Source: Wickerhamiella versatilis
Taxonomy: Eukaryota
Assembly (NCBI GenBank): GCA_030867685.1
Contig: JAQOWU010000007.1
Location: 2,232,001-2,296,000 of the forward strand
Length of the DNA: 64,000 nucleotides
Direction: 5' to 3'
Part shown: in pieces, positions 15,202-62,654 of the stretch
Position numbering within the stretch: position 1 is the stretch's first letter
Layout of the letters: every line of letters starts with the position of its first letter
Made by a program: the position numbers and the translations under genes
The notes under the pieces: model-generated
The model's database searches: none
What the model saw: the letters and a program-made list of their open reading frames with translations, nothing else
Told to the model about the DNA's origin: nothing

Positions 15202-16092
<891 letters not shown>

Positions 16093-16159
16093 ACAAAAGA
16101 ATATATTATATGTATAAATAATATCAACGTGAATATCAATATCGATATGGGTATCGATA

Positions 16160-39202: not shown

Positions 39203-40396
39203 TCATTTTGTGGGTGAATTACATGTCCCAGATGTGAACGATGACTCTGCGCTATGATGAGGTAAGGTTATTTCTTCAAGTTCCATCTCACTTGGTTCCG
39301 TCTCAAGCAATCGCTTTTTACTGCGTTCGACTAGATCTTGCACATAACCTGTTATCCGCATCTCGTAGTCACGCATAAGCCATTGTCTCGCTAACTCCAA
39401 TAGCGAGCAAACGCTGTAAACCATTATAAGGGAAAATATGCAGTAAAGCGGAAGAGATGGCTTATTCTGATATTCATGTGACCTTATTATTTCATGCCAT
39501 AGTTTCTCTCTCCAAATGTCATTATCGTGGATAAAGTACACACCCAAGGTACAATTAGCCAGCACGTTAATCAAATTGGACTGCACATTTATTCGCGAAA
39601 ACAAAAGGAACACCAATACAGCCAAGATAAGGGCACATGGGCTATTCATATCAGAGGCGACGGCAGTGGCTCCTCCCCGATCTCGCGCCCACTGAATCTC
39701 GGGGTGTACTGCGAAGTATAAAATGCTACTAATACTGATAGTTGCAACAGCCACAAGAGCGAAAAGTATCGTTGACGTTTTAATACGGGCCAGCCGACTA
39801 TTAAAGCGCCTGATTGAAGCCCCAAGCAATGTCATATAGATGAACCAAAAAACATGACTGAAAGCGTATTCATTCCACGACAACACAGACATGACAAGAA
39901 ATTGCGTGGTCAAAATGGTTAAGAGATCGAATTCTGACGTTTGTACCGATACAATGGCAGTGCCACTCGATATTAACATAGCTGCGATGTAGCTCGATAC
40001 AAACCAGTACGAATACGTCGCGATGGGGAAGAGTCCTCGAAAGAAACTCCATTCAGATAGATCACGGTTACTGTAATAAGCCAAAAAGAACAGGGTATAC
40101 GACCACACAATGGCCTGGATCCAAGTGCGCATCAACGATCCAAGCTTTACGCCTTTACCGTTCAAAAAGTATCCTGAAAGAAGTAGGAATATATTCACAC
40201 TAACCTTCCCCCCAAGAAACAGCACATTAAAGAAATTCTTGTTAAATATATGCGTCGGTATTTCATTCTCGTCCTCTTCAAAGTTGTGAATTGAGTGCAC
40301 TTGCAAATGATGGGCTACAATTAGAAACATTGCCACAATCCTCAGCAGCTCGAAGTTCGACTGCCGTCCCGAGGCACCCTTCTGTTTCTCCGCCAT
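39203..40396 (-). CDS. Membrane-bound acyltransferase-3 (OafA-like TM domain), bacterial-like
   Basis: RQSNFELLRIVAMFLIVAHH, V.IF.L.SGYF, YWFV..Y, TLGVYFIH; about 10 TMs. Confidence 0.85.
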   Translation of the reverse strand: MAEKQKGASGRQSNFELLRIVAMFLIVAHHLQVHSIHNFEEDENEIPTHIFNKNFFNVLFLGGKVSVNIFLLLSGYFLNGKGVKLGSLMRTWIQAIVWSYTLFFLAYYSNRDLSEWSFFRGLFPIATYSYWFVSSYIAAMLISSGTAIVSVQTSEFDLLTILTTQFLVMSVLSWNEYAFSHVFWFIYMTLLGASIRRFNSRLARIKTSTILFALVAVATISISSILYFAVHPEIQWARDRGGATAVASDMNSPCALILAVLVFLLFSRINVQSNLINVLANCTLGVYFIHDNDIWREKLWHEIIRSHEYQNKPSLPLYCIFSLIMVYSVCSLLELARQWLMRDYEMRITGYVQDLVERSKKRLLETEPSEMELEEITLPHHSAESSFTSGTCNSPTK

Positions 40397-40969
40397 GTTT
40401 CACGCAAAGAAATAAGTTTGGCAGTACACTGTACACAACGCGAACTGTTCGGATGCGTCCCGTGATGAATAATCAAAACTGTTAGCGCAGAAGGGTTGAG
40501 AAATTCAGCAGGCTCAGCCAACTTAGGTAACCTAACGGGGGGCCATGTTAAACAAGCTGCCTGTAATAAGTAAGAAGTTATAGATAATAGTAAATTACAG
40601 CTGCTTTTTCACTGAATGAAATTCTGTTTCTATTTTAGGTTCTGATGTGCTTGTTTCAGTTCACGTCGCATAGTTATAGGAATATTCATAAGAGTGTTAA
40701 ATCAAACAGCTAAATGCATAGAAATCTTATGGACGTGCTTATCAACTTGCTTTTCCTCCCAGAGACACACTCTTGCTATATATCGAAGTCTCGTAGTATG
40801 ATTCACGGTCACCAACTTCCAGGAAAATAAATTGTATCTGGCGACAAATTGGAACATGCATCACAAAATAATCCCCAAATTCATAACAAAATCTATATCT
40901 TAACGTTTAACCATTGTGCCACGTGCCCACAAAGACCTCCGACATTAGTTTCTGAGTAATGAAACAATC

Positions 40970-41557
40970 ATGAGACTCGCGGTCTTTTGTGGGTCTTCTC
41001 CGGGAAATAATGCCGATTATCGGGAGAAAGCGTATAAATTTGGGCAATTTATCGCCAGTAGAGGAATAGATATGGTCTACGGTGGCGGAAATTTAGGTTT
41101 AATGGGGGCTTGTGCTGATGGCTGTCTTGCCGGTGGAGGCAAAGTCATTGGCATCATGCCGCAGGATTTATTTGACAAGGAGGTCGGGCACAAGGGCGTT
41201 ACTGAGCTTATCGTTGTTCCAAGTATGCATGTTCGCAAGGAACGGATGGCGGATCTTGCCGATGGTTTCGTAGCTTTACCTGGGGGACCTGGAACACTGG
41301 AGGAGATATTTGAGCAATGGACTTGGGCACAATTAGGTATCCACAGAAAGCCCTGTTCATTTCTAAATGTTCGTGGCTACTTTAACCCTGTCCTAAACAT
41401 GGCTGACTCAATGGTAGAAGCTGGTTTCATGAAAGCAGATCATCGCGACATGTTGATATTTACGGAAGACATGGCTGATTTGGTTGATAGATTGAAAAAT
41501 TATAAGCCGGTTTTGGACAAATGGGGTCGTAAAGGGGATAATAATATCAAACCGTGA
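40970..41557 (+). CDS. LOG-family (TIGR00730-type) nucleotide/cytokinin riboside 5'-monophosphate phosphoribohydrolase, bacterial-like
   Basis: VFCGSS.G, VYGGG..GLMG, MHVRK, PGGPGTLEE, TWAQLGIH.KP; 195 aa. Confidence 0.93.
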   Translation: MRLAVFCGSSPGNNADYREKAYKFGQFIASRGIDMVYGGGNLGLMGACADGCLAGGGKVIGIMPQDLFDKEVGHKGVTELIVVPSMHVRKERMADLADGFVALPGGPGTLEEIFEQWTWAQLGIHRKPCSFLNVRGYFNPVLNMADSMVEAGFMKADHRDMLIFTEDMADLVDRLKNYKPVLDKWGRKGDNNIKP

Positions 41558-41867
41558 GTTGAATTGAAGACCTTCTTTTGTTCTTTTTTGATTAGCTTTT
41601 GTTGTGGGAATCGCTTTATAAGGTCCTATAGGGACATTGGAAGCTTCGAGTTTTCTGAGTCTTCCGTGAGAAACACCAATAGAAAAGCTAATTCTTCAGA
41701 CGTAGTAATCTATGATCTAGCCAAAACATTGACGATGAAACAAGGGATGGGATTACTGGCTGGTTGTAAGCCGCTCTAATGATGTTTTACTTGTAGTACT
41801 CCTTGTAAACTAGTCATCGAACAGACATCACAGGTTGCTCTCGAAAGTACTGACTGTTGTATTTCAC

Positions 41868-42402
41868 TCAACTTACTCTTCTGGGCTCCAAATTGCTTGG
41901 TTTAAGCCATTTATCTATTTTTCGTGACAATAAATGCCACACCTCGTTGAAAGATTACTTCGAACTTGAATCCGAGACGAGTGACGCAATTACAAGAAGG
42001 TTGATCAAAATCGTCGCATTCACAGCGTTTATAACCGAGCTCGTTGAATAAGTATCGCATCAGTAAGTACAGCGTCTCGGTAAAATGTACAGAACGCTGA
42101 AGAAGAGTGGTGGGCATCACCCACCCTATTTCAATAACTCCATTTGAACGGTCATCTCTTATCGACGCTATAGAACCCATAGCCTTATTAGTGGACGAAT
42201 CAATGACAAAGTAATGAGGAGGATCGATAGAACTACACTTTTTTCTACCGAGCTTTATGAATCTTCACTAGCGGAAGGCCCCACCAAATGGTGCATCCGT
42301 ATGCTTGAATTTGCTTGTCATATAGCATTGGATGGCCTGGGAAAGGGCTTTATAGAATAGTTTCGAGCATGAAGGTCGCTTGGAAGGTGACCAGTCAAAA
42401 TC
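41868..42402 (-). pseudogene. Decayed RimJ/RimL-type GNAT acetyltransferase (YdaF/YIR042C-like)
   Basis: Fragments in different frames: DWSPSKRP; LVGPSASEDS* (TAA 42257-42255); DPPHYFVID...NGVIEIG...YLLMRYLFNELGYKRCE-CD...RLGFKFEVIF; then, frameshifted, NEVWHLLSRKIDKWLKPSNL. Confidence 0.8.
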
Positions 42403-42556
42403 TTATCCTCTCTGACGCACATATTCCTTAGCTGGAATCTCAGCATAAGATAAATAATCAATCCTATCAGTCTTTTACGAGTCAATCAAGTCGTCAAACA
42501 TACAGTCAACGGTGTATCTTTATTATATCAGATTCGTGAGTGAGCTTGGGTATAAA

Positions 42557-42580
42557 TATATATATATATATATATATATA
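42557..42580. repeat. (TA)12 microsatellite at the 3' end of the transcription factor gene
   Basis: Read directly from the sequence. Confidence 0.9.
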
Positions 42581-42589
42581 ATTTACAAA

Positions 42590-44830
42590 TTAAGTCAAAT
42601 CCTCTGTGTTAAAGGTCCAAGCTAGTACTCTGAAAAGAGGGTCTTCAAAATCTGGGACAGCGGTACCTGGCATACTGGGATCAACATTCCTATTAATACC
42701 AACTTCTTGAGATGACAGCACCTCTTCTTGGAATTTGTCGCGCTGTATGCTCGATAATGAATTAGTGAAGTAATCTGTATCAGCATTCCAATTGTTATCA
42801 GGAAAGAACGACCCTACCAGACTACTAGGGGTTTTGAATGATGGTTGTGAATTCTTGGGTACAAAGTCTTCCTGAGCCTGGCCTCGCAATGCCTTCCCCA
42901 GTATATCATAAAAGATATCTTTCATTTGAGATTTCGCTGGTCCCTTAGCGGCTTCTGCCATCTTATTCATGTTCTCAGTTTGAGAAAAAACCTCCCTCAC
43001 CTTATGCTCAGCAGATAAAAGTTCACTGAGCACTCTTTGCGAGATTTTTGCAGCTTGGCTACTACTTCCAACAGAATCGAGTAGTTCTATAGCACTTTTA
43101 ATGTATTCGCGACAAAAAGCAAGGTTTGATGTCGCGTCGGTCGAACAACATAGTTCAATAACTAGCGTTGTTGCTGCACCAAGAACATATAATGATGTTA
43201 ACCAATATTTGAGTACGGCAGGTGTTTTTTCAGAAATATCTTTAAGGATAAGAACAATACTCTGCGCCGCGTTCACAGAAGCAATGCGCGCAAACTTCCA
43301 CCTATCATCCTGATAACCGGCAAGTTGGAATGTACGATTTAGCCGAAGTAACCGATTATGATACATTAGCTCGAGTGTGATACTTTCCATCAAGCGGGAT
43401 TTATCATGGTCTTTTGAAAACTTAGATGTGATATCCTCAGCCCTATAGCTCAAACAAGAAGGAGTTGAGCTACGGATCTCATTATAAAGAGCAGTGTATT
43501 TCTCAACATGTTCTCTCCCAAGAGGACCGCCAGCCTTGTTAGAGTCATCAATAATATTGCGCAGTATCTCCACGTAGCGGCATGAAAAAATTAAATATAA
43601 ACTTGTAGTATACTCTTCCGGGCTCTTCGGAACAAGTTGAGATCCGTTAAAAGCACAATTTGAGGGGAGCGCTGTATGACTTTGGGAGGGGTGGATGGAG
43701 TACATTCCTCCGTTGGAAGAGGCATGAGACCAATCAAGCCAAATAAGATTCCAATAGATGCGACGGCCAACCTCCCTCTCTGTCGGTAGCGAAAAACGAG
43801 AGTGCGTGGACACTACACTTTTATCGTCAAGCATATGGCATCCAAGCCCTTGTGCTACCTTTATCGCCATTCCTAAAAAAACCCAATGGTCTCTAGAGTA
43901 CTTCTTGCGATCATGCTGGTATATGCTCATCAGAATAATACAAGACAAATGCTCTAGTTCGCCCGACCCGATAATGTCAGAGAAGAGAAGAAGCTTATAG
44001 CAGCCTTCATAAATACTATCGCAAAGTACTTGTGCCTGTGATTCACTCATTCCAATAGCTTGTAAAACACCAGGAGTAGCAAAATGAAGGCCAAGTACAA
44101 CAACAATTAAATAACAACATAAAACAGGTGGATGGCATTGCATCGCTGTATCTTCAGGTGACACCATAGCTAATCTCTGAAAGGAAATTTGGGTTCTTTC
44201 TGGATGAAGCACGCGCGTAATCCAATCAACATTGTCAAAATAATAATCGACAAGTAGCTTAGACTGCTGAGGCCCAGGAAGTAAGCGAAGAAACTGAAGT
44301 GCAACACTTCTGAATCCTTCTGAGTTTTGTGGCTGCTTAACTAGTTTCGATGGAATGCCCAGCACTGTATTTTCAATTAACGACTGAATCTGCTCTCCTA
44401 TAAATACTGGACCATCAGAATCTACTCTTCTCTTCTTTGCTGGCGATGCATCGTGTGGCATTGATCTACCTCTGGTAATTTCCTCACGTAACTCAGAGAC
44501 TGTAGATGCTAATATGCTCATATTATTAGAGGTACTCTCAAGCAAGTCTTCCAGCCTGTCTATTCGAGCATTTGAATTCTGAGGCCGAAGATTTCCAGTT
44601 CTATATTCCTCTTCTTGAGTTGAAACAGAAGAAGGGGTGGCTAACGGTGATGTCTGCCCAAGCCGAGGGTCCATCTCATCCAATAATACCGTCTGCTTGA
44701 TAGGTGTACAGTTCGATCCCTGGCCTCGCATTGAGCATTGTCCACACGGAAACGTTTTATCACATTTCGTTTTTCGCTTCCTGCATTGCACACAGCTCAA
44801 TATTTTGGCGGTCGGGCAACGTTTAGGCAT
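42590..44830 (-). CDS. Zn(II)2Cys6 transcription factor with fungal-specific middle homology domain
   Basis: CVQCRKRKTKCDKTFPCGQCSMRGQGSNC, coiled coil, A..LG.H and EREVGRRIYW motifs; first ATG at 44830. Confidence 0.93.
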   Translation of the reverse strand: MPKRCPTAKILSCVQCRKRKTKCDKTFPCGQCSMRGQGSNCTPIKQTVLLDEMDPRLGQTSPLATPSSVSTQEEEYRTGNLRPQNSNARIDRLEDLLESTSNNMSILASTVSELREEITRGRSMPHDASPAKKRRVDSDGPVFIGEQIQSLIENTVLGIPSKLVKQPQNSEGFRSVALQFLRLLPGPQQSKLLVDYYFDNVDWITRVLHPERTQISFQRLAMVSPEDTAMQCHPPVLCCYLIVVVLGLHFATPGVLQAIGMSESQAQVLCDSIYEGCYKLLLFSDIIGSGELEHLSCIILMSIYQHDRKKYSRDHWVFLGMAIKVAQGLGCHMLDDKSVVSTHSRFSLPTEREVGRRIYWNLIWLDWSHASSNGGMYSIHPSQSHTALPSNCAFNGSQLVPKSPEEYTTSLYLIFSCRYVEILRNIIDDSNKAGGPLGREHVEKYTALYNEIRSSTPSCLSYRAEDITSKFSKDHDKSRLMESITLELMYHNRLLRLNRTFQLAGYQDDRWKFARIASVNAAQSIVLILKDISEKTPAVLKYWLTSLYVLGAATTLVIELCCSTDATSNLAFCREYIKSAIELLDSVGSSSQAAKISQRVLSELLSAEHKVREVFSQTENMNKMAEAAKGPAKSQMKDIFYDILGKALRGQAQEDFVPKNSQPSFKTPSSLVGSFFPDNNWNADTDYFTNSLSSIQRDKFQEEVLSSQEVGINRNVDPSMPGTAVPDFEDPLFRVLAWTFNTEDLT

Positions 44831-45270
44831 AGCCAAATTTCCGATATATTACTAAGATAACGTTTTCTGCGTTTATCTAATGCAGTTGCGAATAGAAATA
44901 AAACTCAAGTCAATTAAGATGATAGATACCAATTTATAACGTATGATAGTTTCTCAATAGCTGGGCAAAAATTAAATGACAGGAGCATCCCAGAATATAG
45001 GGAGATGTACGACACCAACTGATCTACTTGAAACTCCCTCTAACAAGCATCAATATAACCGTACATAGAGAAACATTTTTTTTATCTCTAAAGAATGAAC
45101 ATCATTTACCCCAAGAATTAATAGAATTTGGCTGTCAACAATAAACACCGGTGTTATAGTTACGTTACCCTAGCCCTCTTACGGACTCGGACCCGCGGGC
45201 TTTGGGAGGTTATCAACCTGGTAGCGTCAAAATATTTCACCGTTACGTTAGTCACGTGTTGTTGTTGACC

Positions 45271-46944
45271 ATGAATCACAACAATAGAAGGGACGAATAT
45301 GATTCTTCCTCTGGTGAGGTTAAGGAGGCCACTCAGCCACTTAATGAGTTCGTGGTGGTCCCTGGTGAGCCATTTCCAGAAACCCCTGGTCCTCAAGAGA
45401 AATATCTTGTGACCTTTGCTGAGGATGATCCTGACAGACCCTTAAACTGGCCTATGTGGAAGCGGGTAATGATTAAAGCCATCGCAACCCTTAATATTGT
45501 AGTTGTTACTTGGGGTTCATCTGCGATATCTCCGGCTTTAGCGCCTATTTGTGAAGAGTTTCATATCGGTCAAGTGCCGGCTACTTTGACTATTTCGCTT
45601 TACGTTACAGGATTTGCCGTAGGCCCAATTGTTTGGGGTCCAGCGTCAGAAATGTTTGGTCGCCGGGTGCCATTGATCGTGGGTATGTTTGGATTTATCT
45701 GTTTTACATTCGCCACTGCCACTGCAAAGGATGTCCAGACGTTGATGCTTTCCCGTTTCTTCATGGGAGCTTTCGGAACTTGCACTCTGGTCGTTGGACC
45801 AGCAATTAGTGCAGATATCTTTACCACGTCTCAACGTGGTAAGTCCATTTCATTGGTTATTCTTGCCATTGTCTGTGGTCCAATGATAGCACCAGTGGTG
45901 AGTGCATATATCGTCAACTCATATCTTAGCTGGAGATGGACTATGTATATTACTGGCATCTTCGCTTCTCTCGCGCTCGTCCTGAAACTTCTTTTGGTAG
46001 AAGAAACCTATCCACAAGCGCATTTGCGAGCCCGTGCTGTTAAGATCCGAGCGGCTACAGGTAACTGGGCTGTTAGTGCACCTCTTGAGAATATGGAACT
46101 TGATACCAAAAATTTGATACACCGAACTATCTTGAAGCCTTTCAGAATGCTTATGGTAGAACCAATTTTGTTGCTGCTGAGCATCTATCATGGCTTTATA
46201 TACGGTATTCTTTATCTTTGCCTAATTGCTGTTCCCTTGATTTTCTCTGAAGGTTATAAATGGCACGGTGGTAACCAGTACCTTCCATATTTAGGTATGT
46301 TTGTCGGCTCCCTACTTGTTGTGCTTGTAAACCTATTTGTATTTGACAAAATGACCGAGAGAGAATTGAAGCGTAACAATGGTGACGTCCCTCCAGAAAC
46401 TCGTTTGCCCCTTATGATGATGTGTGGCGTTGCCTTTGCCATGGGTATCTTCCTTATGTGCTGGGCTGGTGCCTATCCTCAAGTTGAGGGTAAGTCCGGA
46501 GGCGCACATTGGATTGCACCAGTCATAGGTGCAGCATTGATTGGTTATGGGCTTATCGGAATTTTCCAGGCAGCTATGATCTATATTATTGATACCTATT
46601 TGCTAGTAGCAGCATCTGCTATAGCTGCAAACACCTTCCTCCGTTCAGGAATGGCTGCTGCATTCCCCCTTTTCGCCTCTGCCATGTTCCACAATCTCGG
46701 AACTCAGTGGGCAGGCACCCTCCTGGGATGTCTTGCATCCTTATTGGCCCCCGTACCATTCTGCTTTTACTTTTTCGGTAAGCAGATTCGGGCAAAATCT
46801 AAGTATGCTGCAGGTGATGATGAATTGGACCGTGAGGACCTCATGGTTGAAATCAGTGCTGACCCTGCAACAAGAAACTCGCAGGGCACTCATTCCTATA
46901 ATGATATCTCCAGAGTGAATTCCCGTGCTTCAGGGGCACTTTAA
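45271..46944 (+). CDS. MFS drug:H+ antiporter, DHA1 (Tpo1/Flr1-like, 12 TMS)
   Basis: DDPDRPLNWP, WGPASEMFGRR, SWRW, EETY, PETRL, ASAIAANTFLRS; first ATG at 45271. Confidence 0.92.
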   Translation: MNHNNRRDEYDSSSGEVKEATQPLNEFVVVPGEPFPETPGPQEKYLVTFAEDDPDRPLNWPMWKRVMIKAIATLNIVVVTWGSSAISPALAPICEEFHIGQVPATLTISLYVTGFAVGPIVWGPASEMFGRRVPLIVGMFGFICFTFATATAKDVQTLMLSRFFMGAFGTCTLVVGPAISADIFTTSQRGKSISLVILAIVCGPMIAPVVSAYIVNSYLSWRWTMYITGIFASLALVLKLLLVEETYPQAHLRARAVKIRAATGNWAVSAPLENMELDTKNLIHRTILKPFRMLMVEPILLLLSIYHGFIYGILYLCLIAVPLIFSEGYKWHGGNQYLPYLGMFVGSLLVVLVNLFVFDKMTERELKRNNGDVPPETRLPLMMMCGVAFAMGIFLMCWAGAYPQVEGKSGGAHWIAPVIGAALIGYGLIGIFQAAMIYIIDTYLLVAASAIAANTFLRSGMAAAFPLFASAMFHNLGTQWAGTLLGCLASLLAPVPFCFYFFGKQIRAKSKYAAGDDELDREDLMVEISADPATRNSQGTHSYNDISRVNSRASGAL

Positions 46945-47052
46945 GAACATAATTCATTGTTTTTGGTTCTAATTTTTTTTGTAGAAGAACCGAATAATCC
47001 AACTAGATTTTACATTTTAAGCTTGATTCGATTTAGGTCACCCGCTGTCATT

Positions 47053-51962: not shown

Positions 51963-52215
51963 ATTACTTTGGCAAACTTTCCCCGTCAGTTCCCCTCATA
52001 CCGGAAGAATATCTCTAAAAATGACTGAGATCAAAGTCAAACTAGAATTTGAATACCCAATAGCATACGAACATCTTCAAACTTTAGATCATTGTAAATT
52101 CATTCTATTAAGAAAATGTCCAAATTTCCTTTAAGTTGTGTCCATCGTGATTAATCAAATCACGTGAATCGAAGTGCCCAGACTAGATCACGGTTTATAT
52201 CTTTGAGAGAGTGTA

Positions 52216-53220: not shown

Positions 53221-53536
53221 TATAAAACTTGCTCTCCTACAAAAACTACCTAGTCGTATGGCTTAGCATAATTTTTTTTATACTTCGTTAAAATGACGTT
53301 TCCGCTCTATTTTACAATTCTTGCAAATCGACGTACTTAAAGAGGCAACGGTGTTAGTTTGGACGAATGTACTATTCAGTTTTTTTACTATAGTTTGTAT
53401 TCAGACGATTAGAAAGACCAGATATGGAATCTTGCATCAAGGCACTACTGGCAACTATGTTAAGGTTGCATATCATGTGACATTAGATCAGCGATTCGAT
53501 TATCTTTGCATTCTTACCTTTGTCTTGTTGGCACAA

Positions 53537-55114
53537 ATGTCTAAGGAAATAGGAAAAGAAGATGTTGAACTAACAACAGCGGAAATTGCGGATGTTGATC
53601 CTGAAACTGGTGTTAAACGAGGGCTTAGAACACGACATGTTTCTATGATCGCTTTGGCTGGTATCATAGGAAGTGGCCTCATAGTGGGCAGCGGAAATGC
53701 TCTAGAATTGGGTGGGCCTGCATCGACACTTATCTGTGTAGTAGTAGTGGGCTTTATTGTGCTCTCTGTCATGCAAAGTATCGGAGAAACTGTTACACTA
53801 TATCCAGGTGGGGGTGGTTTCTTAACCATCGCGAGCCGCTTTGTCAATCGTCCCCTCTGCGCGGTGATCTGCTTCAATTACTTTGTAGCTTGGATCATGG
53901 TCTTAGCAAATGAGTATAATGTCTTGACCCAAGTGCTGCACTCTTGGGATTCGTCAGGTGGGGAAGGTACTGGCACTGAAAAGGTTCCAATATATGGATA
54001 TTTCTTACTATTTTTCGCATTTTTTCAATCTTTCCAGATGTTAGGAGTGAAAAGCTTTGGTGAGGCAGAGTTTTGGCTTGCTCTTGTAAAGATCCTAGCA
54101 CTAATCGCCTTCTATATTTTTGCTTTGATCTATGTCTGTGGTGGAATCAAAAATAGGCCAGCTTTCGGATTCCATTACTTCAACGATCCTGGCGCTTTTC
54201 ACCAAGGATTTCGCGGACTTGCACAGTGTTTCGTTTTTTTCTCAACGTTCTACGTAGGTACAGAGGCAGTCGCTCTCACAGCCACTGAGGCAAGAAACCC
54301 AGGTACAGCCATTCCTAAGACAATTTCGCAAGTAATGGTACGAATTTTGTTGATTTACGTTCTGTGCATTTTATTTATGGGAATGACCTGTCCCTACGAC
54401 GACCCCCAATTGTCGAGCGGAGCAACGAAAGCTCTGCTGAGTCCAATGACCATTGCAATCCAGAATGCCGGGCTAGAACAGGGCTATCATATTATAAACG
54501 TGCTTCTTTTGGTTGTGCTGTTATCAGCTATCAACTCCAGTATATACTTTGGATCACGAAGCATCTTTTATTTGGCCGACAATGGCCTGTTGCCTCCCAA
54601 ACGATTTTGGACTTACACTTTACCTAATGGAGTACCTCTCGTCTCAGTTACATTTGCACACCTCTTCGGTTTTCTCTCGTTAATGAATATGAGCGAGGGT
54701 GCCGCTCAGGCATATACTTACATCACCAATCTTAGTGGTATATCAATATTCATTGTATGGGCTGGAATTTCGTTCTCACACCTCCGTTTCCGCCGCGGAT
54801 GGCGATTACAAGGTTATGGTACAGGCGATCTCCCGTACAAATCCTTTTTTTATCCAATTACCCCACTTTTTGGGCTCGTTTTGAGCATCTTTCTGGCGTT
54901 TGTTCAGGGTTGGACAACCTTCAGTCCTTTTTCAGCCGGTAACTTCGTAGACTCCTACATTCTGCTGCCAGTTTCTGGCGTCATTTATATCGTGTACGGT
55001 CTTGTTTTACGTGAATTTAAGTGGAAGAAACCAGAGGATATGGACTTCACATCGGGGAAGCGGGCAGACCTAGATATAACGAAGAAGAAGTTGAAATTGT
55101 GGGAATTAATTTGA
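53537..55114 (+). CDS. Yeast amino acid permease (YAT/APC family)
   Basis: KRGLRTRHVSMIALAGIIGSGL, FGEAEFW, GTEAV...A.EA.NP, S..NSSIY..SR; first ATG at 53537. Confidence 0.92.
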   Translation: MSKEIGKEDVELTTAEIADVDPETGVKRGLRTRHVSMIALAGIIGSGLIVGSGNALELGGPASTLICVVVVGFIVLSVMQSIGETVTLYPGGGGFLTIASRFVNRPLCAVICFNYFVAWIMVLANEYNVLTQVLHSWDSSGGEGTGTEKVPIYGYFLLFFAFFQSFQMLGVKSFGEAEFWLALVKILALIAFYIFALIYVCGGIKNRPAFGFHYFNDPGAFHQGFRGLAQCFVFFSTFYVGTEAVALTATEARNPGTAIPKTISQVMVRILLIYVLCILFMGMTCPYDDPQLSSGATKALLSPMTIAIQNAGLEQGYHIINVLLLVVLLSAINSSIYFGSRSIFYLADNGLLPPKRFWTYTLPNGVPLVSVTFAHLFGFLSLMNMSEGAAQAYTYITNLSGISIFIVWAGISFSHLRFRRGWRLQGYGTGDLPYKSFFYPITPLFGLVLSIFLAFVQGWTTFSPFSAGNFVDSYILLPVSGVIYIVYGLVLREFKWKKPEDMDFTSGKRADLDITKKKLKLWELI

Positions 55115-55633
55115 TCAATGGATGGAAATTAACCAAGCGGCTATATCATATCAGCCAGCAGTTCACTACTGGGGTGGGTCACCACCAATATTTTATATTT
55201 AAGGATGTGAAATGCCTTACTTTCTATGATCTCCGTTTGCTTTTTTCTGCCAGTCTGTAAAATGTGATCTACGCCAGCCAGAGCAGACATTAATACCGTA
55301 ACAGATGCGTATTACAAGTGTTATGTTCTACTTATTTTATAATCGCTAATTGTAATGTATAGTATAGAGCAACAAATTCAACCTGACAAATGCAACTAGT
55401 ATATTAATTCTGCAACAATTAGTCTTGAGCTAAAATTTTTTTTCAGATTTAATTGCTGTTGAGCAAGATACACTGGTTGCATTATGCACATACATGACTA
55501 AACCAACCGTAAGGGATATTATTCTATTATGATAACTTCCTGTTCAGGTTATATGAATATCAAGTAATTTTCCTTTTAAAGCAGCTAGTTATGTGTATAT
55601 ATCGCATTACCATTCATCAAGTAGTAGACGAAT

Positions 55634-56227
55634 ATGTTCCTGGCTTCTATCACATTTGCACTGCTGTTGCTTCAAGGCGTTTGTTTCGCTAAAACCACTT
55701 CGACAGCCGAACCCCAAAAGAGTTCGGATGTAACAAATGACGATTCAACGGTCTGCGCTGTAGCAGTTCTGCAAGGTCCTTCAAATGTTAAGGGCACCGT
55801 TACCTTCTTGCAACCATCACAAACGGACACTGTGGCAGTGCACTATAACATATCAGGGAATGATCCCAATGCTCTGAGGGGATTTCATGTTCATGAGTTG
55901 GGAGACCTCCAGGATGGATGCTCTTCGGCTGGAAGTCACTACAACCCGCTTAATCGTCAACATGGGGGTCCGAATTCCGAAAACCGACATATGGGAGATC
56001 TTGGAAATGTCAAAACAGATGAGGACGGCAATGCAATTGGCATCATAAATGATAGCCAGTTAACTCTCTTTGGAGTGCATTCCATTGTGGGTCGATCAAT
56101 AGTGATACATTCTGGTGAAGACGACCTGGGGCAGTTCGATGGTGAGTCGAAAATCACAGGAAACTCAGGCAGCCGTAATGCTTGCGGAACAATAAGCATA
56201 GCAAATAATTCAAGCTTAAATTGGTGA
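55634..56227 (+). CDS. Secreted Cu,Zn superoxide dismutase
   Basis: Signal peptide, GFHVH, SAGSHYNP, HGGP, RHMGDLGNV, IVIHSGEDDLG, GNSGSR.ACG. Confidence 0.92.
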   Translation: MFLASITFALLLLQGVCFAKTTSTAEPQKSSDVTNDDSTVCAVAVLQGPSNVKGTVTFLQPSQTDTVAVHYNISGNDPNALRGFHVHELGDLQDGCSSAGSHYNPLNRQHGGPNSENRHMGDLGNVKTDEDGNAIGIINDSQLTLFGVHSIVGRSIVIHSGEDDLGQFDGESKITGNSGSRNACGTISIANNSSLNW

Positions 56228-56507
56228 TGGAAATAGGCCATCTGTGACCAATTTATAAATGAAGCGTTGCCAGAATAAAAAACTTATTCCATCCAAGACA
56301 TGTACACCGCGCACATATTGCACTTGCACAAGTTTTCGATTCAACTCATTGGTAATAGGGCAAAACACAGCATGACAACCATTAAAACTATCGCTACAAC
56401 GCAGTACGTTAGCAACCCGAGGGAGCTAGCGACTAGAAATTAAATCACCGGAACCGATGGAACTGGTGAAATCTAATGTCATATTACATATATTTGCATT
56501 GGTGATT

Positions 56508-56834
56508 TTAGCAGCCAGTGAGACCTACTAGCAGCTCAATGCACATAGCTAAACTCACGGCACCGTAGAAGCAATCCCAGCAGCCACGGCCACCTCCTCT
56601 ATTGCCACCTCCACCCTGCTGGACATAGACTGGTTGCTGCTGAGCATATCCACCCTGCGGGGGAGGTGCATAATTCTGATAGTTTGGTTGATATTGCGGC
56701 TGTTGATACCCCTGATTCTGTTGTGGCGGAGCACCATAACCCTGCGAAGCATTCGGCTGGCTGTTTTTGCCAGAACTCGCATTAAAACTGGGGGGAGGGC
56801 CCTCAGGTGGTCTGTAGTATTCCTGTTTAGACAT
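56508..56834 (-). CDS. CYSTM-type Gln/Pro/Tyr-rich tail-anchored membrane protein
   Basis: YYRPPEGPPP, Q/Y-rich body, PVYVQQ, Cys-containing hydrophobic C-terminus. Confidence 0.7.
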   Translation of the reverse strand: MSKQEYYRPPEGPPPSFNASSGKNSQPNASQGYGAPPQQNQGYQQPQYQPNYQNYAPPPQGGYAQQQPVYVQQGGGGNRGGGRGCWDCFYGAVSLAMCIELLVGLTGC

Positions 56835-57133
56835 GATCCTATAAAGTCCCGAGGAGGGTGTCGAAGTTACGATCCGCGGTTTACGTAATATATTGCTGGG
56901 GTTGCGGCGGGACGCCTGCGGACGACCGAGCGAAGCGTCTCCTTAAATTGCGCAGCGAATGATACTGGAGGAATAAAAGAATTTAAAAGTTTTTAAGGTT
57001 TCCAGGCAGTACTAACTATTGTCTAAAAGCACACTACAATATTGATTACACTAATTAGACGTACTGTGCTTACCTGCCTAAGAATGATTGTTTCTTTAAC
57101 ATCAAAAATGGGTTTCTCAACTAGCTAAACTGC

Positions 57134-58504
57134 TTAGAACAGTGCAAGAATAGCAACGGCGCCAATGACAAGACCACTGATGGGGCTCACCGCGCTTCCG
57201 GCGTTTGCAACAGCAGGCTGGGAGCTTGGCACGAACTCAGCAGCAGAGGTTGCTGCAGGGACAGTTCCGTTAGATGGAGAGCTCTTAGATGGCAACTTAG
57301 CAGCAGAGGACTCCGGAGCGCTGGCAGCAGGAGCGCTGGCAGCAGGAGCACTAGCAGCAGGAGCGCTGGCCTCAGTGGTGCATGGGGCAGTCACAGTAAC
57401 GGTGACAGTCTCAGGCGTGCACACAGCAGAAGACGAAGGGAGGGCACTCTCCGCAGCAGAGGTTGGCGGGAGAGCAGACTCCGCAGCCGAGGTAGCAGGG
57501 GGAGCCGCCTCAGGGGCCGAGGTAGCAGGGGTAGGAGCCGACTCGGGGGCCGAAGTAGCGGCAGGAGCCGACTCAGGGGCCGAGGTAGCAGGGGTAGGAG
57601 CAGACTCAGGAGCAGACTCAGGGGCCGAAGTAGCAGGAGGAGCGGACTCAGGGGCCGAAGTGGCGGGGGTAGGAGCCGACTCGGGGGCCGAGGTAGCAGG
57701 AGGAGCAGACTCAGGAGCCGACTCAGGGGCCGAGGTGGCAGGAACGCCCTCACTCTCACTGGGGGAAGCCGAAGGCTTGGTAGACATAGTCTTTGTGAGA
57801 GTCAAAGTGGTTGCAGATGAAATGGTGTAGGTCTTGGACTCATGAGTGAAAGTGGTAGGACTTGGGCAGTATGTAGTGAAGTGAGTAACATCAGCTGTGA
57901 CAGTGCTCTCGGCAGGAGCGCTTGAGTTTGCAGACCTGGGGGGAACTGCGCTCTCAGCAGCGGAAGTTGGAGGAATCTCAGAAGATTCGGTGGCTGCTGG
58001 TGCAGACTCAGGTGCGGAGGTTGGGGTGCCAGAGCTTGCCTCAGTCTTGGTGCAGTCACAGTCCTCGATAGTCATAGTCGTAGCCTCGGTAACAGTGTAG
58101 GTGGAGGAACCGTGAGTGAACACAGTAGGAGAAGAGCAGTAGGTAGTAATGTAATTAGTGACCTCTGCAGTCTTGGTGACATCAGGACCAGATGATGGGA
58201 CACCAGATCCAGTGGCAGTAGAGGCAGATGATGGGACGGCAGACTCGGCGGCCGAGGTGGCAGGAAGACTGGAGTCAGTCTTGGTACAGTCACAGTCCTC
58301 AATAGTCAATGTGGTTGCCTCAGTCACGGTGTAAGTGGATGAGCCATGAGTGAATGTAGTTGGTGATGGACAGTATGTCGTGAAGTGGGTAACATCAGCA
58401 GTAGCAGTGGCAACAGCTGGAACGGTAGTGTTCCAGTATAGGCTGTTACCAGCTACAGCCTGCAAAGCAGCGACAAGAACCACAGGAGCGACGTTGCTAA
58501 TCAT
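57134..58504 (-). CDS. GPI-anchored Ser/Thr-rich cell wall mannoprotein (Sed1/Ccw12-type repeats)
   Basis: Signal peptide, three TTYC(P/S)SPT.FTH..TYT...ATT.T domains, ATSAPES repeats, C-terminal ANAG plus hydrophobic GPI signal. Confidence 0.9.
   Translation of the reverse strand: MISNVAPVVLVAALQAVAGNSLYWNTTVPAVATATADVTHFTTYCPSPTTFTHGSSTYTVTEATTLTIEDCDCTKTDSSLPATSAAESAVPSSASTATGSGVPSSGPDVTKTAEVTNYITTYCSSPTVFTHGSSTYTVTEATTMTIEDCDCTKTEASSGTPTSAPESAPAATESSEIPPTSAAESAVPPRSANSSAPAESTVTADVTHFTTYCPSPTTFTHESKTYTISSATTLTLTKTMSTKPSASPSESEGVPATSAPESAPESAPPATSAPESAPTPATSAPESAPPATSAPESAPESAPTPATSAPESAPAATSAPESAPTPATSAPEAAPPATSAAESALPPTSAAESALPSSSAVCTPETVTVTVTAPCTTEASAPAASAPAASAPAASAPESSAAKLPSKSSPSNGTVPAATSAAEFVPSSQPAVANAGSAVSPISGLVIGAVAILALF
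57460..57745 (-). repeat. Intragenic minisatellite encoding (P/A)ATSA(P/A)E(S/A)A repeats
   Basis: Recurrent ~30-45 bp units built on GACTC(A/G)GGGGCCGA(A/G)GT(A/G)GC on the + strand. Confidence 0.85.
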
Positions 58505-59524
58505 AAAGAATGAACTAAAGAACGTTGTGAATCAAAAGGGAAAGGGGACCCCCTGAAATATATATATTTTTTCGAGGCGTAGGGGAATTCCCATCACATC
58601 GCATAAGCAGTATGTGGTAGTGCTGCTCGATATAGGGGTATGCAGACCCCTTACCCGTTGAGCATTCTTCGAAGTAGCGGGTTATAGAATTGCGATGGAA
58701 CGATAATTAGTAGCCCAAATAGACATTAATTTGATTCCATTCTCTTATTCTCGCGATTTAGGTGGGTTCAGACCGTTGTAACGAAGTTGTTGGTATTTAG
58801 CGAGATCCAACGCGTCTAGGTATGTATTAGTAATGACGCGGGGGAGGGGCACACAGGGGTGACATATGACCATCAAAACAATAAATTGGCCTTTTTTCTA
58901 CAATTTATTTCTAGAATGATCTGAAATTGTTAGAATCCCCATAAGAATAGACTGAGGCTTTAAGGAATTACTCGAAAACATGACATTCTTGACGCGCTGG
59001 TATTATACCCTAGCCCCCGAAGACTCCTGGTTGTTAACCACGGGTGGGTTGAAACCAAGAAGTAAACAAAAAAAAAGAGGGTTAATTATAAAGGTTCAGT
59101 AATAGATTGCGAGTTAATTTGTCTTCAACCTACATAGTTATAACGATTTTTTAAATTTTTTTCCCTTGTTCTGATTGACCCCAGTACGTTTAGCGGTATG
59201 TATTACTGGAAGGTTATTTAGCTAGTATGGCTGAGCCCCGGCCTAGGGTAACGAGTTTTTCTAGGTGTTCAGCTTTTTGCAGTTCAATTGATACAATATA
59301 TTCAATAATATGTTTATAGTATGTCGAAATAGAAAAGTCCAAATTATAACGAAGATACGAAAAAAATCTCTGCAAGTAAGACACTATATCAGGTACAATG
59401 TTCTTGTCTTTAAAAAAAAATTATACTTAGAGGGTTAGAAATACTTCAATCAATTAACGAAAAGGCTTCCAAATCAACCGGAATGCCTATTTCTTAGATG
59501 CTATTTGCTCGTCATGCGACTATG

Positions 59525-59534
59525 CTATTTATAG
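59525..59534. promoter_or_regulatory. Rlm1/MEF2-type site upstream of the GPI wall protein gene
   Basis: CTATTTATAG consensus match about 1 kb upstream of 58504; it could instead be part of the NHA 3' UTR. Confidence 0.3.
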
Positions 59535-59626
59535 CAAAAAAGAATTATGAACTATATATAGCATTGCCACTCTAGTAATTGAGATTGATTGAGACATTAG
59601 GAATTAAATATATAGACATTTATTTT

Positions 59627-60970
59627 CTAGGATTTGGCTTTTGACTTATTATTGACCCTTTCGAGAATACGCACGACTCGCACCGATAATCCATGGACTA
59701 TTACAGAACTAAGCACAATAAAACATGTAACTGGCCAAATGCGTGCTAATACATTCATTCCTTTTATCCCACTTGTCGGAATTGTGTCCTCAGGAACATT
59801 CCCATTTCCCTCAAGTCGACTAGAAGCCAAGAGAGACATGTAAATTGCCGCCACCCCGATTGGTCCGAAGTGTCCACATATCAACGCGTCCTTCCAACTA
59901 TGGACTGCTGGAATGACAGGTTTAAGGATTAAAAGAGCTGGAATTCGCCTTCCAACTAAGATTAAGATCGAAATCACTATCAATCGCCATACGGGCATTC
60001 CTAATGCCGTATCATTGAAGCTTTCCCAAGGAATAATAGCACCAAAATAAATGAAATATGATGTGTTTATGACGAAGTCGATAAAACCGGTGACATCAAG
60101 ATCTGCAGTAATATTATGTGCCCATTTGTCCCAAGAAAATGCCGCACCAGCAAAGAAAGAAACCAAAAAATCGTCCACCCCTAACACGGATCCTACTCCC
60201 GCGCACCAAAGTCCCATTATTATATTGAATGCCAGCATATGCTCACCTTTTATTTGATACCACCTTCCGCTGAATTTGAAGATCTCGCGAAAAACAAATC
60301 CTATTACGGCACCTAGGATACAGCCAAATAAAACCTCATAGAGTACTGTTAGTACTATAAAGTCCTTTGCTACCTCATTGGCATGATGCTCATGGAGCAA
60401 TATATGTACAGGTAACATCATGAATGGTAATGCCATTCCATCATTAGAGGCCGATTCTGCAGAGAGCAGAGACGTGATTCTTTGAGGAAGCGATTTTGCG
60501 AAGTCTGAATTGGCAACTACCGCGCTCGCCAACACAGGATCGGTTGCTGTGACACAGCCTGCAATTACAAGCGCCTCAACCCAGCGAAGGGGTGGCAGGA
60601 GCTTCCATATAAAAATAGAATTCAGCATATAGCCTATAACCATGATAGGACCAAGTACCATGACTAGACTAAGCCAATTCTTCATGATATACTTCGGCGG
60701 TAACTCCACGCTGGAACCGAATATCTGAATATTCATAACAATTCTCGACAGTTCGAGTGTAATATAGTAAGTGTTACCCCACTTGTTTGGACTGAGCCAA
60801 TCTAAGCAATGTGGGCCTACAATCAGTCCGTATATTACTGCAATGATTACTTCTGAAAGATCAAAACGTTGCTTAAACGCGAGAGCGACCGAGCCTACGA
60901 TAATCAGGCCAAAGCTCAGACAAGCTAAACCTACATGTGGATATGTACCAGAGATTTCTTCAAAGGCCAT
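59627..60970 (-). CDS. Plasma-membrane Na+(K+)/H+ antiporter, Nha1/Sod2 family, lacking the long hydrophilic tail
   Basis: GPHCL, VELP.KY, TATDPVLA, SAES..NDG, GVDDFL, RRIP, HFGPIGV, S..VHG.S. Confidence 0.92.
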   Translation of the reverse strand: MAFEEISGTYPHVGLACLSFGLIIVGSVALAFKQRFDLSEVIIAVIYGLIVGPHCLDWLSPNKWGNTYYITLELSRIVMNIQIFGSSVELPPKYIMKNWLSLVMVLGPIMVIGYMLNSIFIWKLLPPLRWVEALVIAGCVTATDPVLASAVVANSDFAKSLPQRITSLLSAESASNDGMALPFMMLPVHILLHEHHANEVAKDFIVLTVLYEVLFGCILGAVIGFVFREIFKFSGRWYQIKGEHMLAFNIIMGLWCAGVGSVLGVDDFLVSFFAGAAFSWDKWAHNITADLDVTGFIDFVINTSYFIYFGAIIPWESFNDTALGMPVWRLIVISILILVGRRIPALLILKPVIPAVHSWKDALICGHFGPIGVAAIYMSLLASSRLEGNGNVPEDTIPTSGIKGMNVLARIWPVTCFIVLSSVIVHGLSVRVVRILERVNNKSKAKS

Positions 60971-61122
60971 CTACTCCGCACGTCAGTAATGACCAATATC
61001 GCCCGCGGACTCTTTTTACCCTGCCTGTTAGCCAATCAAATCCTCTTGCTGAATAAGACGATTTTTAATTGCTGAGTATGTCTCACATGGGTGTAAGATG
61101 GAGCAAAAGCATTGAGCCTCAA

Positions 61123-61138
61123 TATATATATATATATA
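61123..61138. repeat. (TA)8 run in the divergent NHA/racemase promoter
   Basis: Read directly from the sequence. Confidence 0.8.
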
Positions 61139-61270
61139 TGCAAATTGGTTAACAGCGACCTAACCAGCTCAATATTTCTCTGCGACTTTTGCTTGTCCGG
61201 CGTTGACGAACGAAGTTATTACCCGCGATGACAAATCATAGAAATGTAGCACAAGAAATTCTTTCTGATA

Positions 61271-62008
61271 ATGCGGATTCACGTTATCAATCCTAATACT
61301 AGTAATAGTATGACAGAAAAAATAGCCGTGGCAGCAAAGAATGCTAGTCGCACAGCGGAAGTTGTGGCCGTGACAAACAGCGAGGGGCCAGCCTCACTCG
61401 AAAGCCATTTTGATGAAGCCTTGGCTGTGCCGGGCCTTCTTAGAACAATTAGGGAAATCAGGGATGGTGAGACTGATGGCATATTGCTTGCTTGTTTCGG
61501 AGATCCCGGTGTCCATGCTGCACGAGAGCTTTCGTCGGTACCCGTCTTTGGAATTGCAGAGGCAGCGATGAGAACAGCAGCTGCCCTCAGCAGTAAGTTT
61601 TCAATTGTCACTACACTTGCCCGTACGATTCCGATAGCCGAAAATATTCTTCAACAAATCGGATTGGAGCGTTGTTGTGCTAGAATTCGCGCTTGCGAAA
61701 TTCCTGTTTCCGATCTAGAAGACAAGGGTGGTGATCCAAAGGCTTTTAACACACTTCTTGAGGAATGCAAACGTGCTGTTGATGAGGATGGTGTCGATGC
61801 TTTGGTTCTTGGATGCGCCGGCATGGCAGACCTGACGGCCAACATCAGCACCGAATTAGGAATTCCAGTTATCGACGGTGTAGCCGCTGGTGTCCAATTA
61901 TTGGAAAGCTTGGCCAATCTAGGACTGAGGCCAGCCAAGATTGGTGATAGAGCTATGCCACCGGCAAAAAATATCATTGGACCCAATGCCGACTTAGGGC
62001 GCGCTTAA
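61271..62008 (+). CDS. Hydantoin/allantoin racemase (Asp/Glu/hydantoin racemase family), HpxA-like, bacterial-like
   Basis: INPNTS..MT, H.DEA, ACFGDPG and LGCAGM (two catalytic Cys), PV.GIAEAAM, FSIVTTL.RT, PVIDGV. Confidence 0.92.
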   Translation: MRIHVINPNTSNSMTEKIAVAAKNASRTAEVVAVTNSEGPASLESHFDEALAVPGLLRTIREIRDGETDGILLACFGDPGVHAARELSSVPVFGIAEAAMRTAAALSSKFSIVTTLARTIPIAENILQQIGLERCCARIRACEIPVSDLEDKGGDPKAFNTLLEECKRAVDEDGVDALVLGCAGMADLTANISTELGIPVIDGVAAGVQLLESLANLGLRPAKIGDRAMPPAKNIIGPNADLGRA

Positions 62009-62168
62009 TATTATCAAAACTCATGCTTGTACACCGTAACACCATTCCTTATTGAAAGAAGGATGGTAGTGCATTATTATAGTTTCAATTATAAGGAAGA
62101 CCGAATAGATCTTAACTAATCCGACACGGATTATTTCGTAGCTTTGTAATTACTTCTCTTTTGATCTA

Positions 62169-62654
62169 TTGTGCACCATTATATCGGCTGCGGAGCGTTT
62201 AGAGCAGTTGCTCCATTCCGTGTCTCGAGTAGAGTTTTTCAGTACTAGTCAAGATGGGTCCAGGACGGGATGGGATGGTAAAGGGACTGGGCGAGTGGTT
62301 ATAGAAGTGGACCCAATATCCTCGGTAAAGCAGGTCCGACTTTATGAAACGGGCGAATTCAAAGGCGACGCGTTCGGTGTGGTGACCTACCGCAATACGT
62401 ATAGATTTGATTGGCTATCAGACCGAATTCGCTTGTACCATGAGAGACTGGGTGCCGACAACGCTGTTTGGCTGGTTGATCTTGTGTTATCAAAGTTGGA
62501 TCCAAGGGTGCTGGTCAGTGAGTCTCCTCATTTGTGTGGAGAAGATACTTATGATGCCTCTTTGAAACTTCTAAATGGCAGGTTTGTTCTAATCTGGGAC
62601 ATCAGAGGACCCCGTAAGAATGAGCATATAGAGTACTATTACGCATCTATTTAG
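62169..62654 (+). CDS. DUF6314-like beta-barrel protein, bacterial-like; no ATG in the open frame
   Basis: TGW.G.G.G.V, E.G.F, N.YR, RL.HER.G...VWL, HLCGED.Y.A, W.I.GP.K.E.I.Y.Y; the 161-codon frame contains no Met. Confidence 0.65.
   Translation: MCTIISAAERLEQLLHSVSRVEFFSTSQDGSRTGWDGKGTGRVVIEVDPISSVKQVRLYETGEFKGDAFGVVTYRNTYRFDWLSDRIRLYHERLGADNAVWLVDLVLSKLDPRVLVSESPHLCGEDTYDASLKLLNGRFVLIWDIRGPRKNEHIEYYYASI

Follow-up and report, generated by a model that had tools for sequence, protein, structure and literature searches.

Positions 39–63 kb of a 64,000-nucleotide stretch of Wickerhamiella versatilis DNA (GenBank assembly GCA_030867685.1, contig JAQOWU010000007.1, positions 2,232,001 to 2,296,000; the whole stretch is called the window below) very probably represent a patch of yeast chromosome where DNA of at least four unrelated bacterial lineages was integrated in an ancestor, on separate occasions, and has been retained since. 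The donors would have been Bacillota-like for an acyltransferase gene, Acetobacteraceae-like for a LOG-family gene, actinobacterial for an FGE gene, and Carnimonas/Halotalea-like Halomonadaceae for both an Asp/Glu/hydantoin racemase gene and an adjacent DUF6314 reading frame. The affinities of these genes are bacterial and differ in donor, the transfers are old, and the interval 42701–62700 is contiguous and transcribed. Each acquired gene (xenolog) would now stand as a eukaryote-style gene of its own among fungal-type genes, with a yeast-like composition.

Open reading frames (ORFs) were called with the standard code and ATG starts, and families were assigned by Pfam profiles. The bacterial-type features are the following (aa, amino acids):

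39203–40396, minus strand: acyltransferase (Acyl_transf_3, PF01757), 397 aa, 81 bits
40970–41557, plus strand: LOG / TIGR00730 phosphoribohydrolase (PF03641), 195 aa, 147 bits
41886–42264, minus strand: GNAT (Acetyltransf_3, PF13302) pseudogene fragment with a 117-codon frame at 41914–42264, 25.8 bits
52216–53220, plus strand: FGE (FGE-sulfatase, PF03781), 334 aa, 246 bits
61271–62008, plus strand: Asp/Glu/hydantoin racemase (Asp_Glu_race, PF01177), 245 aa, 207 bits
62142–62654, plus strand: DUF6314 (PF19834) frame, 62169–62654 when read from a TTG, 38.8 bits against a cut-off of 23.1

All features named in an original prediction for this region were found where it had placed them. It had counted five intact intronless genes, however, and only four are intact with an ATG, the DUF6314 frame having none. 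The lengths are those of bacterial proteins, as it had stated: homologues measure 186–205 aa for LOG, 245–250 aa for the racemase, ∼300–350 aa for FGE and 154–167 aa for DUF6314.

The racemase and the DUF6314 frame

Both cysteine motifs of the racemase (ACFGDPG and LGCAGMA) align with the solved structure 3qvj (218 bits), and the protein is 51% identical to a Klebsiella allantoin-racemase cluster and 67–68% identical to its homologue in Halotalea alkalilenta. It was matched in 249 of 301 Halomonadaceae genomes, best in G418 (69%), H. alkalilenta (G001, 68%), Carnimonas nigrificans (G411, 66%), Carnimonas sp. (G431, 65%) and G407 (64%), followed by G437 and G419 at 59% and then by values of at most 55%. 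A careful tree pairs the window protein with a homologue, P0361 (support 97/88), as sister to G407 plus Carnimonas (97/86), in a clade with Halotalea (98/94) that itself lies inside a Halomonadaceae clade (97/100). By phylogeny the racemase is derived from a Carnimonas/Halotalea-like member of the Halomonadaceae, nested there with strong support. A native DCG1-type fungal gene, considered as a candidate, is contradicted by this nesting.

The Halotalea homologue is flanked by an allantoin/purine-type permease, a GntR regulator, a polysaccharide-deacetylase-family protein and an amidase. This is an allantoin-type cluster. The yeast racemase is predicted, from its family, to make both enantiomers of allantoin usable as a nitrogen source. 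It resembles Klebsiella HpxA and 3qvj (“putative hydantoin racemase”) in the identity, score and cysteine motifs given above, but differs from them in standing alone; no allantoin-utilisation gene lies beside it among the Pfam families of the window, and a Na/H exchanger gene adjoins it instead.

The DUF6314 frame was matched in three of 401 sampled Pseudomonadota genomes, with the best match in Halotalea (47%), and in 100 of the 301 Halomonadaceae genomes, where its top five (G411, G431, G407, G001 and G418, the three named ones being the two Carnimonas and H. alkalilenta) are the same five that head the racemase list. A profile scan across all species is led by C. nigrificans (48%), Carnimonas sp. 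(48%) and Halotalea (45%), and a small tree is consistent with the Carnimonas/Halotalea placement (support 82/94). A single-protein scan of genome contigs with the DUF6314 frame gave no match, its relatives having come through the genome searches and the profile. Judged by these sequence comparisons, the racemase and DUF6314 share one donor lineage, and the number of transfer events is therefore probably four and not five.

In the yeast the two lie 134 bp apart on the same strand, whereas they are unlinked in all five closest genomes, on separate contigs in three and at distances of 339 kb (G418) and 197 kb (G407) in the others. The simplest reading is a single DNA uptake from one Carnimonas/Halotalea-like cell, in which the pair would have entered together as loose fragments of the donor’s DNA that were joined at integration; two independent transfers from the same lineage to the same spot are a possible alternative. 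Operon transfers into W/S-clade (Wickerhamiella/Starmerella) yeasts have been described for enterobactin (Kominek et al. 2019) and thiamine salvage (Goncalves & Goncalves 2019), both as cited in the available text of Brito et al. 2026 (PMC13376923). The pair resembles these in being adjacent, co-oriented and of one bacterial lineage, but differs in that none of the five closest donor genomes has its members side by side and in that the other three xenologs of the region come from other bacterial lineages. We know of no functional link between the racemase and DUF6314.

The DUF6314 frame is open for 170 codons, 161 of them counted from the TTG at 62169, and contains no in-frame ATG; its 169-residue translation is without methionine. 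In bacteria, TTG followed by acN gcN att ata was found in 11 of 13 distinct DUF6314 loci (the start alignment has 14 rows, of which L108 and L109 are one place), and in six of those loci no other in-frame start lies upstream of the TTG. The window reads TTG tgc acc att ata at 62169, which is the homologous codon. Of 32 columns without variation among 12 bacterial homologues, the encoded protein keeps 31, compared with agreement with the majority in 42 of 111 variable columns, and the chance of a 161-codon stop-free frame is ∼9e-5 at local composition. Since the bacterial TTG start and 31 of the 32 invariant residues are retained, the frame would probably still be translated from the inherited UUG. 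We consider it fairly likely that the DUF6314 protein is, or recently was, made.

It is rather unlikely, though several observations fit, that DUF6314 is an untranslated leftover beside the racemase which never gained an ATG, with the RNA over it belonging to the racemase 3′ untranslated region or to the tail of the minus-strand neighbour. The frame is without any ATG, the TTG at 62169 has a C at −3 (a poor context for initiation in yeast), and upstream of it, after the stop of the racemase, come two short frames with an ATG. The DUF6314 branch is also long, at 1.08; of the seven bacterial rows near it in its group, six have at most 0.39 and L120 has 1.15. The RNA depth over 62044–62700, ∼100 in the library X24 and ∼24 in X21, is not assignable to a transcript, as the libraries appear to be unstranded. 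A decaying remnant is harder to reconcile with so improbable a length of open frame and with conservation concentrated at the invariant columns. The racemase, moreover, has a homologue of 66% identity, taken to be that of a sister yeast, and on a joint entry of the pair a neutral DUF6314 frame would have had time enough to decay.

A fuller account we offer tentatively, as falling somewhat short of probable: a bacterial gene would have remained functional for long in a yeast nucleus without gaining an AUG, through UUG initiation or through re-initiation on a racemase–DUF6314 transcript, under purifying selection at the protein level, and the pair would represent unlinked fragments joined at integration, which would favour uptake of whole-cell DNA over operon capture. 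Yeast genes with non-AUG starts are known, GRS1 starting at UUG and ALA1 at ACG. The DUF6314 frame is like them in that it can start only at a near-cognate codon such as TTG, but in GRS1 and ALA1 the non-AUG start yields an extra isoform of a protein that also starts at AUG, whereas that of DUF6314 would be the sole start and inherited from a bacterium. A literature search returned no paper on DUF6314, nothing relevant by title among the matches listed for horizontal gene transfer, non-AUG, yeast and bacterial gene, and, by titles and abstract starts of the matches listed, none on a horizontally acquired allantoin racemase in yeast.

Two other sources of a start codon were tried and rejected. 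An intron that would supply an ATG (ATG at 62023, branch-like TTAACTAAT, TAG at 62139) has a poor 5′ site, GTACAC, and no joint among the RNA reads, the latter being a weak negative because the joint list was filtered. A T inserted behind 62127 in the strain that gave the RNA (21 of 30 reads of X24) brings no ATG into an open frame. Downstream, the 3′ end of the ORF at 62933–63571 on the minus strand faces DUF6314 and may add to the RNA there.

The DUF6314 structure model (mean confidence score, pLDDT, 91) consists of an N-terminal helix and a ten-strand barrel. Its likenesses in VIA-align were all barrel folds, among them the CpeS lyase (Z 11.6), OlmO (11.2), and Rv2717c and nitrobindin (10.2–10.3), and Foldseek gave no match at E ≤ 0.001. 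The modelled barrel suggests a small-ligand pocket and nothing firmer on function. In Halomonadaceae (L116–L126, L108 and L110) the DUF6314 gene forms a conserved divergent pair with a gene of ∼290–300 aa, with ∼25–55 bp between the ORFs; the five divergent neighbours scanned were all EamA transporters, and the DUF6314 genes of these loci appear to use a TTG start throughout.

The LOG, FGE and acyltransferase genes

The LOG protein exceeds the cut-offs of PF03641 (147 bits against 27) and of TIGR00730 (192 bits against 96), and its translation contains LPGGPGTLEE, which corresponds to the pattern PGGxGTxxE that we take to be the nucleotide-binding motif of LOG. It falls below the cut-off of the cytokinin-riboside phosphoribohydrolase equivalog NF058542 (137 bits against 300), and is best regarded as a family member, by which it is predicted to be a nucleotide or cytokinin-riboside phosphoribohydrolase. 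Its matches begin with a strain variant (98%) and a homologue (P0002, 71%), followed by Acetobacteraceae at 58–62%, the best named being Gluconacetobacter (62%) and Kozakia (60%); all 17 organism-named matches among the 120 listed are bacterial. When one genome per prokaryote species was scanned, the top six of 80 loci were from Gluconacetobacter and Acetobacter, both Acetobacteraceae. A quick tree unites the window protein with P0001 and P0002 (support 100), and this group joins the Acetobacteraceae at a support of 85. Against solved structures the protein scored 210 bits with bacterial entries and 104 bits with 5ajt, which is presumably a fungal LOG. These comparisons support an Acetobacteraceae-like origin.

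A GNAT relic beside LOG had been predicted, and the remains are indeed those of a broken gene. The match to PF13302 is restricted to profile positions 53–138 of 138, the C-terminal two thirds of the domain, the fragment aligns to residues ∼84–190 of bacterial GNAT proteins of 236–244 aa so that the first ∼80 residues are missing, and a weak continuation in another frame (41939–41886) places a frameshift near 41935. Its best identity in 201 Acetobacteraceae genomes was 48%, a value not diagnostic of origin.

For FGE, the best solved relatives are 6muj and 2q17 (383 bits over residues 38–329), presumably both the Streptomyces coelicolor FGE, and the catalytic cysteine pair is kept, LCHESYC aligning with LCHDSYC of 6muj. 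Among the 120 matches listed, all 32 with an organism name belong to genera that we take to be Actinomycetota, at 60–67% identity. The tree pairs the window protein with P0242 (69% identity, support 100) among Micrococcales and Streptomyces sequences. An Actinomycetota-like origin is supported by both, as the original prediction had it. The yeast protein is like the actinobacterial copper-dependent FGEs in that match and in the cysteine pair, but differs by an N-terminal extension of 40 aa without an evident signal peptide. From the family alone its role would be sulfatase maturation for the scavenging of sulfate esters; no sulfatase domain was found by Pfam among the scanned ORFs of the window.

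The acyltransferase is the weakest case. Its match to PF01757 spans profile positions 3–319 of 326, i.e. the whole membrane domain, with 20 invariant columns among 18 aligned relatives, and it carries a yeast-specific C-terminal tail of ∼40 aa. Among the 120 matches listed, a strain variant (98%) and a homologue taken to be that of a sister yeast (P0122, 69%) are followed by proteins of at most 32% identity; the four with an organism name are all bacterial, and the cluster of the best match bears the name of Streptococcus equinus. Bacillota supplied 61 of the 80 loci of a profile scan, with bacterial identities of 26–33%. The protein thus appears to be bacterial-type and nearest, distantly, to the surface-polysaccharide O-acyltransferases of Bacillota, which agrees with the Firmicutes-like donor first proposed. 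Its family suggests that it would O-acylate a surface glycan.

The acyltransferase, LOG and the GNAT relic all lie within 3.1 kb. Their entry as one transferred block was considered and rejected: no such neighbours occur in the 80 LOG loci, the acyltransferase relatives are Bacillota and not Acetobacteraceae, and the 48% identity of the GNAT relic is not diagnostic. More generally, in none of 107 bacterial loci is LOG or the racemase accompanied by another gene of the window. With at least four lineages involved, and with LOG nearest Acetobacteraceae and the racemase within Halomonadaceae (both Proteobacteria-like, as had been proposed), the earlier view of several donors and not one operon is borne out.

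Age, contiguity and number of events

The identity of the xenologs to bacterial proteins is always below 70%, with a maximum of 69%. The GC content at third codon positions (GC3) of the five frames is 0.39–0.48, within a native spread of 0.456 ± 0.069, compared with 0.51–0.85 for the nearest bacterial homologues of LOG, the racemase and DUF6314, and 0.23–0.72 for the relatives of the acyltransferase. Four of the genes have homologous partners, P0002 for LOG (71%), P0122 for the acyltransferase (69%), P0242 for FGE (69%) and P0361 for the racemase (66%); three of these (P0002, P0242 and P0361) pair with the window genes in trees as well, and P0122 does so in searches. Low identity, yeast-like composition and the four paired partners together show that the transfers are old. 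Both P0002 and P0122 are found on a 116,282-bp contig, and a contig of equal length has a thymidylate synthase with at least 90% identity to that of the window. Given these four partners at 66–71% and the link of two of them to the thymidylate synthase, the insertions would predate the split from the partners’ yeast.

Read coverage and transcription were checked on 42701–62700 (20 kb in 30 bins), with the acyltransferase and LOG outside. One contig of the data set X4 spans the entire interval, though X4 may be the window’s own source, and the unrelated metagenome X10 covers 30 of 30 bins. RNA reads from a strain of ∼2% divergence (∼392 listed differences per 20 kb) cover 30 of 30 bins, and with them every gene of the interval, in X24 and 29 of 30 in X21, with depths of 12–30 over FGE, 50–66 over the racemase and 0–8 in intergenic bins; the Zn(2)Cys(6) factor, MFS, MATE and GH76 genes of the region are all transcribed. 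This RNA evidence came from aligning raw reads; the run index lists no RNA run with the stretch. Variants of thymidylate synthase, ILV6, LOG and the acyltransferase occur together on a contig of 653,755 bp. A 9.9-kb probe was present in 20 run rows from 13 studies, seven of which rows may be the source, and the runs were mostly food-fermentation and sediment metagenomes and isolates.

A single event, in which ligated fragments of bacterial community DNA brought in all foreign genes and fungal genes moved between them later, is improbable. The racemase and DUF6314 demonstrate that unlinked fragments of one donor can become adjacent, and the clustering of the acyltransferase, LOG and the GNAT relic would fit as well; but eight fungal-type genes separate the groups, identities to the nearest bacterium are spread from ∼30% to 69%, and no bacterial locus examined beside LOG or the racemase holds two of the genes (0 of 107). 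We give slightly less credence still to ancient, vertically inherited fungal genes that were lost in most yeasts, their bacterial likeness being only apparent. LOG, Asp/Glu-racemase-family, FGE-domain and acyltransferase-3 proteins do occur in fungi, and the acyltransferase is without a close bacterial relative. The racemase, however, lies several supported nodes deep in one bacterial family, DUF6314 has its best matches in the same genomes, and LOG and FGE are 58–68% identical to single bacterial groups, with no fungal name in the best 120 matches of each; a retained bacterial TTG start is also hard to square with a long eukaryotic ancestry. Best matches and trees place the genes among bacteria and not in the fungal clades that the original prediction had named as the outcome contrary to transfer. 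The chimeric assembly it had also named was not seen, independent contigs and RNA reads covering 42701–62700. Contamination or a chimeric join is the least credible explanation: although the sole contig spanning the whole 20 kb may be from the window’s own source, the xenologs have yeast-like composition and at most 69% identity to any bacterium, RNA reads of a strain with ∼392 differences cover the genes, food-fermentation metagenomes of other studies contain the stretch, and the 653,755-bp contig joins the LOG and acyltransferase variants to thymidylate synthase and ILV6.

Several points weigh against acquisition from four donors as set out above. The trees were built without named fungal sequences, so that “not fungal” means no fungal names in the best 120 matches, nesting among bacteria and the score of one presumably fungal PDB entry. 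The link between LOG and the Acetobacteraceae is a value of 85 in the Shimodaira–Hasegawa-like approximate likelihood ratio test (SH-aLRT) of a quick tree only, and FGE is without a supported sister inside the Actinomycetota. The acyltransferase, at 26–33% identity to any bacterial protein, is weakest in its donor and even in its bacterial origin. Finally, the analysis covered this window and not the whole genome, and the screen for foreign origin left out the 23 genes to the left and the interleaved transporters.

Chromosomal setting and published xenolog patterns

The remaining features of the region, most of them fungal-type by Pfam, are:

42590–44830, minus strand: Zn(2)Cys(6) factor (Zn_clus and Fungal_trans), fungal-type
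45271–46944, plus strand: MFS transporter (MFS_1), fungal-type
47053–48345, minus strand: MATE (MatE), fungal-type
50184–51962, plus strand: GH76, fungal-type
53537–55114, plus strand: amino-acid permease (AA_permease), fungal-type
55634–56227, plus strand: Cu/Zn superoxide dismutase (SOD), secreted-type, fungal-type
57134–58504, minus strand: repeat-rich wall protein, fungal-type, without a Pfam family
59627–60970, minus strand: Na/H exchanger (Na_H_Exchanger), fungal-type
62933–63571, minus strand: ORF of 212 aa, no Pfam family, an arginine run at the C-terminus

Eight fungal-type genes lie between the bacterial-type groups. Interleaving with a Zn-cluster transcription factor and with MFS, MATE, permease and Na/H exchanger genes had been predicted and is confirmed; the GH76, Cu/Zn SOD and wall-protein genes were absent from that earlier listing. 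The first 20 kb of the window hold housekeeping families, again as predicted, namely CorA, a Rad3-like helicase, ATP10, RecQ, a tetrapyrrole-methylase-family protein (PF00590), the acetolactate synthase small subunit, thymidylate synthase, Rrn7 and Atg1. No tRNA was found in the window, and no transposon-like repeats, only (TA)n tracts. An aldo-keto reductase at 23356–24216, tried as a further xenolog, was dropped at just 37–39% identity to bacterial genes.

According to Goncalves et al. 2018, as far as its available text goes, C. versatilis (Candida, now Wickerhamiella) has 211 bacterial genes and W. domercqiae 80. In the available text of Brito et al. 2026 (PMC13376923), identity between xenolog and donor is always below 70%, the genes are common to several species, and xenologs build up, most of all in W. 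versatilis, in “End” domains that are long, AT-rich and weakly expressed. The stretch described here is similar in its many bacterial genes, varied donors, identities below 70% and dominance of metabolic enzymes, and likewise in its sharing with related species, seen here as paired homologues at 66–71%. The “End” domains adjoin a telomere and are AT-richer, with native genes among their xenologs; here the GC content is lower over most of the region than at 8–26 kb: from 38 kb on, 10 of 13 2-kb bins are at 0.416–0.432, two at 0.439–0.447 and one (56–58 kb) at 0.518, compared with 0.44–0.51 in all nine bins of 8–26 kb. As far as the 64-kb window shows, the stretch fits the published W/S-clade pattern. 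Six gene terms of this stretch are absent from the main text of Brito et al. 2026, and the four searched are absent from that of Goncalves et al. 2018, the gene lists of both being in supplements. The available text of the former makes no mention of a donor shared by adjacent xenologs or of the retention of a non-ATG start, which are features of this stretch.

The general phenomenon has accordingly been published before, and what stands out here is the shared donor of adjacent, originally unlinked genes together with the retained TTG start. The value of the region lies in its detail and not in a new principle: it is a compact, well-resolved example of a eukaryotic chromosome gathering genes from several bacterial phyla, in which adjacent xenologs may derive from unlinked parts of a single donor genome. 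A foreign gene under selection with only a bacterial TTG start would, if true, bear on how inter-domain transfers are first expressed. The donor groups (acetic-acid bacteria, food- and waste-associated Halomonadaceae, plant-associated actinobacteria) point to exchange in sugar-rich, salty or fermenting habitats, and the family names suggest that the genes may serve nitrogen, sulfur and purine scavenging and the modification of the cell surface.

The region had been proposed as a landing zone for transferred genes of nutrient scavenging and detoxification, a theme that the family names suggest. Such preferential insertion and preferential retention fit these data alike, and the region may be a permissive chromosome domain under weak constraint, where the survival of foreign genes is easier. 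Frame-breaking differences were seen in two native transporters. The amino-acid permease gene lacks 2 nt at 53799 in X24 (29 of 32 reads; 0 of 53 in X21), and the Na/H exchanger gene has 1 extra nt behind 60606 in X21 (90 of 96 reads; 0 of 161 in X24). These strain-specific breaks suggest weak constraint on the native genes of the stretch.

Among minor observations, (TA)n tracts lie at two borders of foreign segments, at 42546–42581 beside the GNAT relic and at 61112–61146, ∼125 bp before the racemase ATG. The MATE ORF begins at position 16 of its Pfam profile, which may mean an upstream exon or a truncation, and the 1.8-kb gap from MATE to GH76 (48346–50183) has almost no RNA. GC3 is raised to 0.49–0.62 at 16000–27000 (Rrn7, Atg1, an MFS transporter, the aldo-keto reductase and a PIR-type wall protein), the rest being at ∼0.40–0.45. 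The wall protein at 57134–58504 is rich in Ser, Ala, Thr and Pro, with nested repeats of 12–33 nt whose lengths differ between strains, and has by far the highest RNA depth of the stretch (up to ∼1000). Just downstream of the Na/H exchanger, 55 reads of X24 and none of X21 skip 418 nt at 59224–59643 with ends GT..TT, which could be a strain deletion or an odd intron.

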